Shown: in pieces, positions 12,001 through 18,000 of the stretch
How the letters are laid out: each line of letters begins with the position of its first letter
Numbering within the stretch: position 1 is the stretch's first letter
From: Minisyncoccota bacterium
GTDB taxonomy: Bacteria; Patescibacteriota; Minisyncoccia; UBA6257; Brennerbacteraceae
DNA: 64,000 nucleotides
Direction of reading: 5' to 3'
Assembly (NCBI GenBank): GCA_035451285.1
Contig: DAOTOJ010000002.1
Coordinates: 7,817-71,816 of the forward strand
Program-made: the position numbers

Positions 12001-15000
12001 GTACCGTGGTTATTATAACCAGAATAATCATATAAGGTGCCACTGGTTTCATCAAATTTCCAATAACCAACTAAACCATTATCTCTGGTAAATGGACCCA
12101 ATTTAAGATTGGTACCTATTTCAAAAACTCCAGGCATTAAGCCACCATCATTAATAGCTTGTTGATAAACAGTATTATTGGTTGATTCCATTAAAGCTGT
12201 AAGCATAAAACTTCCTCCGGAGATATAAGTATAATAGTATTGGTTATTGTTTATAGGATCAATTGGCAGTTTATTTAAAGGAGAACTTATTCCTAAAGAA
12301 GTAAAATCAACTGGTACCCAGCCAGAACCATTAATTTTTGTCAGATTATCAGCTGTTACACAATGGTATGAATAACCAGTTGGCAAGGTTGGTAAAGAAT
12401 AAGAAGAACAATTACTGTTAGTATCAGGTAAAGATAAATAAACAGTAGTTGTAGAACCAGTTATAGAACCCATTGTTAAGGTTTCATAGATATTTAAAGC
12501 ATCATTTAGTGATTTTAATTCAGTTATTCTTTGAGAATCTCTGGTTCTTTTAAAGATTTCAACAGGATTAATAGCTATTATAGTTACTGAAGCTAAGACA
12601 GCTAAAATAGCAATAACTATTAGTAGTTCTATTAGAGTAAAACCTCTAGTTTTAGAAAACATTAATAATAAATATAATAACCTTATTATTTATAATAATT
12701 ATTATAGTATAAGATTTTAAATTATAAATAGCAAGAACTTTTAAAATGCAAAATGTAAAAATCAAAATGAAAAGTTGTCAAAAAGAATTAAAAAATTTTA
12801 ATTATCATTTTAAATTTTGATTTTTGCATTTTTAACTTAAAAGTTATCCATATAAAAAACCATATGGATAACCATACGGATTTAAAAATAAAAAAATTTT
12901 ACAGAAAATTAAGAATTGAGAAACTAAAATAAAGTAATTAATGTGTATTTAAGTTGTATTAGTTAACTATTGTGGCAAACCACTACTTAATTTCTGAAAT
13001 TTTTACTTCAAGTTCCTTTAAGGAATCTTCAATATTTTTTAGCTTTTCTAATTGTAAACTATAATCAGGTTTTACAAAATTAAAGCTGCTTTTGAGATTT
13101 TCTAATTCTTGCTGGATTCTATCCTTTAAAGCTAGGGCATCTAAAATCTCGACCGGTAAATCAACTGGAATTTTTTCTGGAGCTAAAGTAGTAGTCTGGT
13201 ATTGAATTTCGCTTAATTGTCGTTTTCTATTTAAGGATATCTTTTCTTCCAATGCTTTACTTAATTCGTTGAATTTTTGTTGATTCAGCCGGTAAGCTTC
13301 TTTAATTCTGGTATCAGCCAAAGGATCGCTATTAACTTTTAGGGTTGATTTTTCATATTCTAAAATATTGCTGGAAATATTAGCTAACGTGGAAGAAGCT
13401 GATTCTTTAGCATAATTTAAAAGATTAGCTGTTTCCAAAGAACTAGAAGAAGTTAAGTTATCTATTTCTTTTAAGGAATTATTCAATTCATTTTCTAAAA
13501 CAATTAAAGACTCTAAAGTGCCTTCGTCTTTATTTTTACTAACAATTTTATTTAATTCTTCCTGAATATTATTAATCTCATTTTGATATTTTAAAACAGC
13601 ATCTTTAATATATTCCAAATTGTCAATTTCTTGGGTTTCTAAAATTTTAACTTCCTTGATTCTATTTTGAGCAAATTTTACTCTTAAATTGAGCCTAGTT
13701 GCCTCGTCCTTTTGAGAATCAAGCTGGATTTTTTCAGTTGCTAATTTAACCGGATAAAGCAAATTATTTGGTAAAGCATTTTGGCTTGCTTTAACAATTC
13801 CAAAACCAAAAAGAGTAAAAACTAACAAGACAGAAAAAGCTTTTGAAAAATTGAGAATAATAGTTTTCAAACGAATTGATTTTTGAACGGTCTTTTCCTC
13901 TAACAAAACCTTTTGAGCTAATTCTCCTCTAAACTTTTCTAAAAAAGCCAAATCAACTTCAGTTTGCTGTAAAGCTTGAAGTTTTTTAATCAATTCTTTT
14001 TCTTGTTCACTATAATTTTCTTTCATTTTTTTCACTTTCTAAATTCTCTTTTAACGTTTTTAATGCTCGGTGAATAGCAACATTTATTGCTCCTCGTGAC
14101 TTATTTAAAATCTGGCAAATTTCATCTATTTCCAATTCATCAATAAATTTCATAATTAATAATTTTTTATATTTTTCATTTAGGTTGTCTAAAGCTTGAG
14201 AAATTTCTTGGGTGTTAATAAAATTATCTAAATTCTGGGAAACATCATTTGATACATTATGGATTTCAATTTTTTCCAAATCACTGTCGTCTTCTAAATT
14301 TGCCTGATATTTGTTTGATCTAATATAATCAACTATTAAATTATCTGCTATCTTATATAAAAACGGCTTAATATTCTTTATTTTCTGTCCTTTTTTTAAA
14401 TATTGCCAAGTCCTTAGAAAAACTTCGCTAGTCAAATCATTAGTCTCTTCAACTTGCCTAATTCTTAAATAAATATGCCTTGAAATTTTTGGACTATAAA
14501 AAATATAAAGTTCGTTAAAATTTATAGCTTTTGAAAGATCTCTGTTTTTAAATTCTTCTTCCTTATTCATAGAGTAATGACGAATAAATGTTATAAAAAT
14601 TACAAAAAATTAAGATAATAGTCAAGTTAAAATTTGAGGTATTTTTCCCATTTTTCAAATAAAGCGGCAGTGGCTATTACATCTTTAAAACAATATTTGG
14701 CAATTTCTAGGGTTTTTCCTTCTCTAAAATATTGAGTTACCTTTTCTCCTGTTAATTCGCCCTCTTTTGGAGAATCAATATTAAAAGCTCTGGTCCAAAA
14801 ATGAAGACTTAAATAATCTTTTTTGGCTCCATAAAAAGACAATTGATCAGCTAAATCAATATGCTGTAAATTATAAGGCTGGCGTTCTAAGTATCTATTG
14901 GTCATCAAATTTTTTGAGGGCCTAATTTCATTCATAGCCGATCTAAGCATTAATACAGGAACATCAAAATTATAACCATTAAAAGTAATAAATTGCTGAT

Positions 15001-18000
15001 AAGGGGTAATAATCTCCCAAAAACCTAAAAGCAACTCTTTTTCAGAAGAGAAAGAAAGATACTCCACCCCTTCTTCTTTTAAACTTATTTTTTCTTTATT
15101 CTGAAAGTAAACCAAGCCATTTTTCGTTTGGGGATTAAGCATTCCAATAGCGACAATTTGGTTGGTTGGGGCAAAAAAAGATAGTTTTTCCTTCTCTTCT
15201 TCTAATTCTTCTTCATTTTGGGCTGTTCTTTTAAATTTTTTTTCAAGCAAATTTTGAGAAACTATATCTAAAGAAGAAAATTCTTCTCCGGCTGTTTCAA
15301 TATCAAAAACTAGTTGATTCATAATTTTTACTAAAAGCCAATTTGTTTAAGCCAATATTCATTTTCCCATTCCCAAAGCTTTTTGGCAGCTAAAAATGCT
15401 TCGAAATCTTCATCAAAATTGTCAAGCGATTTTATTTCCCATTCTCCAATAGTTTCAGACCACTTGTGATCACACGTGCCATTTGTGCCATTACCGTTGA
15501 AATTTTCTTTAATTGTTTCCCTGCCCCCCTTAGTTCTTTTTTTAGCTCCGCATTTTTCGCAAATTTGGTTTTGGTCGATTCTTAAAATCCAACGGCCTTG
15601 AATTTCTTTAGGTATTAAATCTTCCCAAGCCTGAGAATCTTTAACTAAAGCTCCCATATAAGCCGAAGTTTGCAAATTATAATCACGCCAGATTCCAGAA
15701 GAAGTTTTAATATCTAAAATTCCAAAGGTACCATCGACTTCCCCTAAAATATCAATAGTGCCAGCATAACGATATTTGGGAGTCCAAATTCTTTTTTCAA
15801 TTGCTCCCTTAGAGATATCCACTGAGTGAACTTTTAAAAAATCATAAAAAGCGTCAATTGCTGGTTTAATATCACTGGTTATTTCAACTGGTTCATTTTT
15901 TAAAATTGCTTCAATAGTATTATGAATTTTAGTTCCTTCAGTTGCTGATTTTCCGGTAACTGATAAGGCTGATGAAAAACTTTCAGCTTCTCCATAAAAT
16001 TTTAAAAGCGCTGGTTTAGATTTTATAGAAACAATTGAAGTAACCCGCGGATACCATTCATCATTAATAAGGTAACCGCAAGAATTCATAAATTCTTCTA
16101 AATTGCGATAATACATATTACTTATTTAATATTTAAAAAGATTAATAATTTGGCGGTGGAGCATTGGGAGGAGAAATTTGGGGAACAAAAGAAGAAATTT
16201 CTGGCAAAGGACTAACAACCCCTTGAATATTATTGGGAATATTCTCTTGAATATTGCGGCCGGTGTTAAATATTACAATAAAAGCAATATTAAGCAATAA
16301 AGAAATCGCCAAAATTACAATTAAAAATATAAATTGATATTTTTTCAAATTCATATTTTTTATAGATTTATTTTAACACAAAAAATCAGCTTTACAACTT
16401 GCTACTTTCTTACTATTTTTAAAAGTTAAAGTTGTTTGACTATGACTAAACGTTCTAATTTAAACTAATTTAAGCCTTAGTTTTAAGAACCAATAATTTT
16501 AGTTATTTTGATTTGAGTTAAAGATGGTTTAAATCCCTTTTTTGTTTTTCTGCGAGTTTTAGGCCCGTATTTTACAGTAATTATTTTTCTGCCTCTAAAA
16601 TTTTTAATAATTTCTGCTTCAACTAAAGATTTTTTAACAAGAGGTTTGCCAATTATAACTTTTTCTGGCTTTTCGCTATCAAAAATTAAATAAACTTCTT
16701 CAAAATTTACCTTCTCTCCTTCCTTCTTATTAAGATTATCTACTACCAAGAGATCGCCTTCTTTTACTAAAAACTGATGTCCTTTTATTTTAACAACTGC
16801 TTCTAACATAATTTTAAATTAAAGTGTGTTAATTGAAACTAAAATAAAACTATAAATTATTACTAAAATTTGAATAAAAAATGTCAAAAAAGAAATAAGT
16901 AATGCATAAAATTCTTCTTTCTTTTTTAACAAAACATTACTTAATATAGCATTAATTATAAAGATAATCAATCCTATTAAAGAAACAATAAACAAATCCT
17001 CGAAATTTCCAAAAATTTCAATTGAAGAAAAACTGCGATAATGAATTAAAAACGGAAAGTTTTCTTTAGGAATTTTAAAATAAATATTAAACCAGCTTAA
17101 AATATTAATAAGAAATGAGGCTCCAAAATAAATTTCAGTTTTAATTTTAGTTCCAATTTTCATAAATTATTAACTAGAGGCACAAAAATAAATCCTTCGA
17201 ATTCTTTTTTAATAATTTCGTTTTTTCTCTTTTCGAAGAAATATATTGAATTTCCAATCGGGCAAACCAAATAGCCGTTATCAGCTAATTGTTCTATAAA
17301 AATAGCTACCTGGTTTTCTTTTTGTAAGCTGGCGCTAATCAAAATTTTATTAAACGGAGCATATTCTTTTAATCCCAAAGAACCATCTTGGCAAAAAAAT
17401 TTAAGAATTCCTTTTGAAATAAAATTGTATTTTTTAGAATTTTCTTTTCCCAGAAGGCATAATTTTTCTTTTATTTCAACCGCTAAAACTTGTCCCGCTT
17501 TTTTATCTTTATCGAGTTTCTTGCCTTGATTGCTTACCAAATAAGCTAAAAGATTAGAAGTCCAGCCTGAACCAGATCCAATGTCTAATATTTTTTCTCC
17601 AAATTTAGGTTGCAGTAGTTCCAACATAAAAGCTACAGTTTCTGGCTGGGAAATTGTTTGTCCTTCACCTATTTCTAATGGATAATTATTATAAGCTTCA
17701 TTTTTAAATTCAACAGGAACGAAATCAACTCTATCTACTTTTAAGAAAGCTTCAATTATTTCTGGAGTTTTTAAAGCACCCTTGTTAATTAAATAATCAA
17801 CCAGTTCTTCATTTGAATTATAAATTTCATAAAGCATTATTTTAAAACCAAGATTAAAATTAAATTATAATAAGCAGGGCCACGAGGATTTGAACCTCGA
17901 TCCTCGGTTTTGGAGACCGACATTCTACCATTGAACTATGGCCCTATTATAAAGAGCTCTACCTTTTTTTAGCTTCTTTATGCAAAGTTGTTTTGCGGCA

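Follow-up and report, generated by a model that had tools for sequence, protein, structure and literature searches.

Two nuclease genes stand 8 nt apart, beside the genes of an extracytoplasmic function (ECF) sigma factor and of a membrane protein, in a 64-kb segment of a Paceibacteria chromosome (Candidate Phyla Radiation (CPR), Parcubacteria), called here the window. The question raised by this locus is whether these genes make up a nuclease system of their own, switched on under envelope stress and perhaps acting in defence, as a sequence-only reading of the same DNA had suggested, or whether they are ordinary chromosomal genes that lie side by side. The answer that we favour, and that we hold to be rather probable, is that the two proteins are cytoplasmic housekeeping DNA exonucleases, encoded by core and vertically inherited Paceibacteria genes that were joined by a lineage-specific rearrangement, and that they are independent of the sigma factor and have no part in defence. 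This answer was built on what was observed of the genes and their motifs, on the predicted folds, and on distribution and synteny. The finding is real and fairly ordinary, i.e., two uncharacterised core exonucleases that are juxtaposed, and its one notable feature is that a large family of CPR nucleases, for which Pfam has no model, finds its closest solved structure in MGME1.

The two nuclease genes were found on the same strand with the spacing described in the sequence-only reading (positions 15323-15330, between the stop codon of the PD-(D/E)XK gene and the ATG of the DEDD gene). The span 14010-16116, which had been given for the pair, does hold both nucleases, but it also takes in the sigma gene. 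All three exonuclease motifs claimed for the DEDD protein were present (FDIET at residue 6, FNGYNFD at 114 and YCFKD at 210), and its catalytic residues D7, E9, D120, Y210 and D214 were invariant in 28 homologues. A profile search with Pfam matched the protein to PF10108 (DNA_pol_B_exo2) with 78.7 bits against a cutoff of 24, and also to PF13482 (36.7 against 22) and PF03104 (30.7 against 23); the predicted RNase H-like exonuclease fold was closest to the exonuclease domains of family-B polymerases. These three profile matches point to a DEDDy exonuclease of the PolB proofreading type that lacks the polymerase, and the protein is, as predicted from its sequence, a 3′-5′ exonuclease.

The second protein carries the motifs of a PD-(D/E)XK nuclease, GTID (D122), LDIK (D135 and K137) and QTSAY (Q149 and Y153), together with a Cys/His cluster (C186-x2-C189...C215-x-H217), so that this part of the earlier description was also borne out; in 29 homologues D122, D135, K137, Q149, Y153, C186, C189 and H217 were invariant. 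When the motifs were read by the definitions for RecB-type nucleases (PMC6237815), motifs Ia (H65), II (D122), III (D135-x-K137) and IV (Q149hxxY153) were all present and all invariant, and in the phmmer alignment H65 falls in the motif aligned to 'FHEALE' of MGME1. The predicted fold was closest to MGME1, and this likeness extends to the arch of two helices above the active site, whose place is taken in the predicted model by a pair of long helices near the N-terminus (residues 25-43 and 47-72). A phmmer search against PDB sequences returned MGME1 at E=0.14 and 19% identity, which is not significant by sequence alone. No match to the protein was obtained in Pfam at E≤0.01 or in NCBIfam. The phrog_298 hidden Markov model (HMM), in turn, gave a full-length match (E=2.8e-28, residues 18-254 against profile positions 62-262 of 293). 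The invariant Cys/His residues C186, C189 and H217, with a third Cys nearby, are located inside an insertion of ~40 residues (roughly 183-225), and this lineage-specific, zinc-knuckle-like CxxC…CxH insertion is missing from most of the outer relatives, which match profile positions ~15-185 only. Candidate beta-clamp-binding motifs at the C-termini of both nucleases (…KYLKF and …KQIGF) were considered and dropped, as these residues are in or beside predicted helices.

The name 'Cas4-like' given to this protein did not hold. PF01930 (Cas_Cas4) did not match it, and the PADLOC models of Cas4 matched residues 103-163 only (E=8e-6). The four-Cys Fe-S signature of Cas4, with one N-terminal and three C-terminal cysteines, was not found in the protein, in which C13 is not conserved and C186/C189 plus H217 are the only invariant residues of this kind. 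Since the Fe-S cysteines are missing and the invariant Cys/His residues lie inside the insertion, 'Cas4-like' is right at the superfamily level only, and a better description would be an MGME1-like, phrog_298-type exonuclease with a zinc-knuckle insertion. The likeness to MGME1 does not imply orthology. Neither cas1/cas2 nor other cas genes were present in the annotated flanks, and no tandem-repeat or CRISPR array was detected in the 64-kb window. With PADLOC, the four core proteins and ten neighbours gave no system-level match, and the matches seen were partial, to Cas4 or to generic patatin or methylase models. These genes do not form a defence system, and the earlier view of them as an accessory block has to be abandoned in light of these results, of their housekeeping neighbours and of the class-wide distribution and conserved gene context of both families that are described next.

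Homologue clusters numbered 2,105 and 2,284 for the two nuclease families, and every match of either family with a named source was from Patescibacteria or Parcubacteria. The best 120 matches per family were mostly 45-70% identical, the identity across sampled relatives was ~50% or more, and contigs named 'Candidatus Paceibacterota bacterium' encode the exact nucleases of the window. When one genome per GTDB species was scanned with a pattern, 471 stretches matched the PD-(D/E)XK family. A library clustered at 50% identity contained only 38 representatives of the tight family (E≤1e-30), and ~2,300 representatives reached E≤1e-10. All ten outer relatives sampled were members of phrog_298 (1e-22 to 1e-45), and the data suggest that the Paceibacteria branch is single-copy and class-wide. 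This conserved distribution across the class is not that of patchy accessory genes, and both families appear to be class-wide and vertically inherited. The phage relatives of both nucleases were found within replication or nucleotide-metabolism modules, and among the matches listed there was no phage genome with the two families side by side. A profile search of 1.84 billion proteins gave no fusion of the two nucleases among the 150 best PD-(D/E)XK representatives (≤329 aa), a list too shallow for fusions further out.

We then asked how often the two genes are neighbours, and two sets of loci were used, one centred on the PD-(D/E)XK gene (80 species-genome loci, of which 20 were too short to tell and 60 informative) and one centred on the DEDD gene (80 metagenome contigs, including 31 loci with ≥3 kb on both sides). 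With the PD-(D/E)XK-centred set, the DEDD gene was within the flank in 26 of the 80 loci, i.e., 26 of the 60 informative ones (~40%); five of these pairs were co-directional as in the window and 21 were convergent, and the 34 other loci with enough flank were unlinked. The five co-directional loci are those of the closest relatives (L001-L005, 62-67% identity), and within this window clade the genes are spaced by 8-49 nt, or by 442 nt with an intervening open reading frame (ORF) on the opposite strand in L004. With the DEDD-centred set, 13 loci were convergent, six had the DEDD gene followed by the PD-(D/E)XK gene on the same strand (gaps of 11-168 nt) and three had the arrangement of the window; of the rest, three had a different convergent nuclease (PF12705), one a Cas4-like gene and 54 none. 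In a neighbour-joining tree of the PD-(D/E)XK nuclease, each of the two co-directional arrangements was monophyletic and the convergent and unlinked arrangements were interspersed through the remainder, so that the tight co-directional pairs belong to two independent clades with opposite gene order. The sequence-only reading had named a lack of co-conservation as what would speak against the pair, and this was found in part: the genes are neighbours in many Paceibacteria genomes, but they are unlinked in 34 of the 60 informative loci.

The usual context of the two genes was murG-gltX-M23-murC, the PD-(D/E)XK gene, the convergent DEDD gene, rpmA, rplI and S41, and then def and fmt. Of these flanking genes, none (murC, rpmA, rplI, S41, def, fmt, gltX, M23, murG) was detected within the 64-kb window. 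The rplU gene of the window (16483-16809, minus strand) has no rpmA next to it and no match to L27 was obtained in the window, while in most relatives rpmA is beside the DEDD exonuclease gene. Adjacency of the nucleases is far above the estimate for random placement (~1-2%), but it is not above background synteny. In our reading, the tight pairing in the window is a lineage-specific rearrangement of an older and mostly convergent neighbourhood within a housekeeping block. In loci of the Moranbacteria type (L084:9397-10563, minus strand, and also L099, L105 and L117) the PF10108 exonuclease gene is convergent with that of a 388-aa nuclease (PF12705 at 6e-35, plus DUF7376), an arrangement in which a non-orthologous PD-(D/E)XK enzyme may take part in an analogous pair; the 388-aa protein was rejected as an orthologue of the window nuclease, to which it is related distantly at best (hhalign probability 22%). 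Around the PF10108 exonuclease gene of the complete genome KatS3mg098 (AP024682.1, locus L082, 8001-13968), genes for a uracil-DNA glycosylase, a Cas4-like PF12705 protein and AP endonuclease 2 were observed within 6 kb, and this cluster has a DNA-repair flavour. The Cas4-like protein of that genome (243 aa) was likewise rejected as an orthologue, being unrelated beyond the superfamily.

The place of the sigma factor was analysed at the level of gene order, spacing and promoter-like motifs. The region from 12.9 to 17.9 kb is a run of minus-strand ORFs, and the order of transcription is small membrane protein, PD-(D/E)XK nuclease, DEDD exonuclease, ECF sigma and anti-sigma (Table 1). The gap between the end of the 70-aa ORF of the small membrane protein and the PD-(D/E)XK gene is 25 nt and that between the DEDD and sigma genes 56 nt, and the sigma and DUF5667 genes overlap by 26 nt. 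A scan of 12500-17500 detected no terminator-like site on the minus strand from 16354 to 12879. Together with the 8-nt spacing, this indicates that the nuclease pair and the upstream small membrane protein are probably on one transcript, and as no such site separates the nucleases from the sigma gene, read-through from the former into the latter is possible. A scan for sigma-70 promoters was uninformative in this AT-rich DNA (38 matches against 25 expected). The sigma protein matched PF04542 (Sigma70_r2), PF08281 (r4_2) and TIGR02937 (83.6 bits against a cutoff of 42.9); the overlapping 350-aa protein matched PF18915 (DUF5667, 1e-9) and has a hydrophobic stretch that was read as a membrane segment. 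From the gene arrangement this protein is a putative anti-sigma factor. The statement that the sigma gene overlaps that of a membrane partner thus stood (26-nt overlap, DUF5667, one hydrophobic stretch), but its placement upstream did not: with every gene of the block encoded on the minus strand, the sigma pair lies downstream, i.e., 3′, of the nucleases.

The sigma and anti-sigma pair follows the DEDD gene in the window clade only (L003-L005 and L087-L090), and in L003-L005 and L088-L090 the DUF5667 gene is co-conserved with the sigma gene. When the spacers between the DEDD and sigma genes were aligned, a YGTAAK-N16-CGTC motif was conserved in all eight loci (the window, L003, L004, L005 and L087-L090), where it starts 26-54 nt 5′ of the sigma start; other positions of the motif are L003:1989, L004:7912, L005:7599, L089:2542 and L090:1030. 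The sigma proteins of the eight motif loci are 36-100% identical to that of the window, and only 36-48% in L003-L005, L089 and L090. The contig of L088 opens with a Nextera/Illumina adapter (…TCGTCGGCAGCGTCAGATGTGTATAAGAGACAG; L088:1-~90), which is an artefact of metagenome assembly. Exactly one copy of the form GTAA[GT]-N16-CGTC was present at each locus, the 64-kb window also has a single one (14603-14579, minus strand), and no ECF-type motif preceded the nuclease genes in any of the eight loci, nor was there another match in the window. This is the typical architecture of an autoregulatory ECF promoter, with an AAC-like -35 and a CGT-like -10 element, and the motif is a putative one as judged from its letters. 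As the sigma gene has its own conserved motif and the nucleases have no copy in front of them, the sigma unit is self-contained and ECF control of the nucleases is unsupported. We therefore describe the sigma and anti-sigma genes as a separate, self-promoted unit, with no support for its control of the nucleases, and the label 'envelope-stress-controlled' is no longer warranted.

What the two enzymes might do was deduced from related enzymes, and so were their substrates, polarity and cooperation. The MGME1-like enzyme, a monomer-type nuclease, would thread a free end or flap of single-stranded DNA (ssDNA) under its two-helix arch, where a two-metal D-D-x-K site would cleave it, and the PolB-type enzyme would strip nucleotides from 3′ ends. 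If co-expressed, the two might act on ssDNA ends or flaps of either polarity and trim them during replication, recombination or repair, and functional cooperation is possible. Several points weigh against our reading or limit how far it can be pressed. Substrate, polarity and cellular pathway rest on analogy, the sequence similarity to MGME1 taken alone is below significance as given above, and a specific role as a replacement of RecBCD, AddAB, RecJ or DnaQ is speculative; the literature on the repair-gene content of CPR genomes provided nothing directly usable. As for linkage, the DEDD gene was near the PD-(D/E)XK gene in the 26 of 80 loci given above, and the corresponding counts were 46/80 for murC, 34/80 for S41 and 32/80 for L27; among the 31 well-flanked DEDD-centred loci the PD-(D/E)XK gene was near in 8 and L27 in 14. 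In the complete genome AP024682.1 the two nuclease genes are ~76 kb apart. Linkage that is not above background, together with this separation, means that cooperation is not required by the data.

A stronger proposal is that the two enzymes form a dedicated module, each depending physically or functionally on the other, for helicase-free end resection or degradation of linear DNA, a bacterial counterpart of MGME1 with the Pol gamma exonuclease. MGME1 was reported to act with this exonuclease in flap processing and in the degradation of linear DNA (PMC6237815), and fusions of PolB-exonuclease-like and Cas4-type domains have been described (PMC3985635), although no fusion was seen among our 150 best representatives. 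Adjacency in 26 of the 60 informative loci exceeds the estimated chance of ~1-2%, three arrangements keep the nucleases together, two clades do so tightly and co-directionally (8-49 and 11-168 nt), the window clade kept the pair though both usual flanks are missing from the window, and in loci of the Moranbacteria type it is another nuclease, of PF12705, that stands convergent to the DEDD gene. However, most arrangements are convergent, which implies separate transcripts, 34 of the 60 informative loci and the 76-kb separation show the genes apart, and the linkage to murC and L27 is equal or stronger. We consider such a module doubtful, and the claim of an obligate pair, in view of the mostly convergent order elsewhere and of a linkage no higher than that of unrelated flanking genes, should be withdrawn. 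Its extension to the whole class, by which a minimal and helicase-free machine made of a zinc-knuckle-bearing MGME1-like nuclease and a polymerase-less PolB-type proofreading exonuclease would resect or destroy linear or flapped DNA as an analogue of the mitochondrial pair, possibly in place of RecBCD, AddAB or RecJ, seems to us somewhat less likely still.

The switch proposed for the locus, in which the ECF sigma pair would turn on an accessory nuclease system under envelope stress for defence against phages and plasmids or for stress-induced DNA processing, is very improbable. The proximity to the sigma and anti-sigma genes is conserved in the window clade, weak and partial PADLOC matches to Cas4 do exist, and a part in defence or repair has been suggested for the solo Cas4 genes of CPR bacteria (PMC5704561); but the association is confined to that one narrow clade, the sigma gene is 3′ of the nucleases with its own motif, neither defence genes nor tandem-repeat arrays lie close by, the PD-(D/E)XK protein lacks the Cas4 Fe-S signature and the two families are class-wide and in housekeeping synteny. 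A role in nucleotide salvage, in which the exonucleases would degrade ssDNA imported through competence or the type IV pilus to mononucleotides in hosts unable to make nucleotides de novo, is improbable as well, if less so. De novo nucleotide synthesis is missing from CPR bacteria, com and type IV pilus genes are conserved in them, and DNA uptake has been proposed as their nucleotide source, but transposon sequencing (Tn-seq) in a saccharibacterium indicates that the com system is dispensable for growth, a result that speaks against such a source (PMC10633639). The MGME1-type fold prefers ssDNA (PMC6237815), phage relatives of the PD-(D/E)XK nuclease are one or two genes away from genes for deoxynucleoside monophosphate (dNMP) kinases, and a pilin gene (11448-12662) is ~320 nt 3′ of the block; across genomes, however, neither nuclease has a conserved linkage to com, pilus or nucleotide-kinase genes, and salvage would not be exclusive of a role in repair.

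If the reading of two sigma-independent housekeeping exonucleases is correct, it gives a functional guess for two families that are 'hypothetical' or generically named in hundreds of Paceibacteria species, and a better annotation of CPR genomes. The PD-(D/E)XK family has remained without a Pfam or NCBIfam model despite at least 471 matching stretches in species-representative genomes. A false lead is also removed, as the locus is not a defence island and its nucleases are not a system under ECF control, and the conserved ECF motif could serve for genome-wide mapping of the sigma regulon. Were the two enzymes a duo like MGME1 and Pol gamma, this would bear on the maintenance of reduced genomes and on the origins of the mitochondrial nuclease, although the evidence does not require a duo.

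Table 1. Genes and signals of the minus-strand string around the two nuclease genes, in positions of the window
Feature	Position	Strand	Remarks
PCMT	17837-17160	minus	ORF
114-aa membrane ORF	17163-16819	minus	ORF
rplU (L21)	16809-16483	minus	ORF
70-aa predicted single-pass membrane protein, Pro-rich C-terminal tail …SPPNAPPPNY	16142..16354	minus	topology read from sequence
PD-(D/E)XK nuclease, MGME1-like/RecB-type, 261 aa, CxxC…CxH insertion	15331..16116	minus	
Predicted DEDDy 3′-5′ exonuclease, stand-alone family-B-polymerase type, 231 aa, PF10108/COG3298	14627..15322	minus	
ECF-type promoter-like motif GTAAT-N16-CGTC	14579..14603	minus	spacer between DEDD stop and sigma ATG
ECF-family sigma, 186 aa, regions 2 and 4 only	14010..14570	minus	PF04542, PF08281, TIGR02937
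Putative anti-sigma, 350 aa, DUF5667, one hydrophobic segment, long helical/coiled region	12983..14035	minus	
First intrinsic-terminator-like hairpin 3′ of the gene string	12842..12879	minus	

The 70-aa membrane ORF of Table 1 had no match in Pfam or PADLOC. In other members of the window clade (L002/L089, L004 and L005), small ORFs (56-78 aa) that begin with a hydrophobic stretch and end in a conserved …PP.xPPP.. tail were observed directly 5′ of the PD-(D/E)XK gene. The GC content is uniform across the locus (~0.29-0.30) and unremarkable, and the annotated neighbours in the window are L21, PCMT, tRNAs, a pilin, a patatin-like protein and an RsmI-like methylase. The type IV pilin-like protein (11448-12662, minus strand), which has an N-methylation motif, is fused to a Laminin_G_3/ConA-like lectin domain, and two partial paralogues of it were found, likewise on the minus strand, at 34848-35396 and 29672-30322. 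A GC spike of 0.44 is accounted for by a complete 16S rRNA gene (36037-37588, minus strand); neither a 23S nor a 5S rRNA match was obtained in the 64-kb window, so that the rRNA genes appear to be unlinked. The RNase P RNA (50578-50936, minus strand) scored 101.6 against an Rfam gathering score of 100, and this value barely over the cutoff suggests a divergent RNase P RNA.

Among the known systems, Cas4 (COG1468/PF01930) differs from the PD-(D/E)XK protein of the window in each of the points raised above, i.e., the PF01930 match, the Fe-S cysteines, the cas1/cas2 neighbours and the repeat array, and a genuine Cas4-like gene (PF12705, a PF01930 match below threshold and a C-terminal CxxC) is separate and elsewhere in a related genome. 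The COG2251/DUF2779 fusions, which are uncharacterised, bring together the same two kinds of domain in one polypeptide, with a PolB-exonuclease-like PF13482 domain fused to a Cas4-type DUF83 domain (Majorek et al. 2014, PMC3985635); here, in contrast, the genes are separate, the exonuclease belongs to PF10108 and not to the PF13482 branch of COG2251, and the nuclease is not DUF83. Human MGME1 (PDB 5zyu/5zyt) shares with the window nuclease the RecB-type motifs, the helices at the position of the arch, the absence of an Fe-S cluster and a similarly small size. It differs in that the identity is only 19%, in that the window protein is bacterial and cytoplasmic whereas MGME1 is mitochondrial, and in that the former adds the CxxC…CxH insertion and a Trp-rich C-terminal helix.

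The DEDD protein resembles the PF10108/COG3298 family in its score well over the gathering cutoff, in its DEDDy residues and in its PolB exonuclease fold, and nothing essential sets it apart, so that it represents the Paceibacteria branch of a family that is catalogued and uncharacterised (PMC3985635). Elsewhere PF10108 proteins are encoded in phage replication modules and, in Acinetobacter, by a stand-alone chromosomal gene that sits between cysM and rumA-relA. One record of the phage collection with such a gene (L169, CAKLQH020000014.1, 'Acinetobacter phage MD-2021a') has the look of a bacterial chromosome, with barA, cysM, rumA and relA around it, and is probably mislabelled as phage. The PD-(D/E)XK nuclease, finally, is matched over its full length by the phage 'Cas4-family exonuclease' profile phrog_298 (for example phiC31 gp1 and exonucleases of actinophages or cyanophages), and is ~24-28% identical to annotated phage exonucleases (tblastn). 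The phage genes are found in early or replication modules, whereas the Paceibacteria branch is chromosomal and carries the zinc-knuckle insertion.

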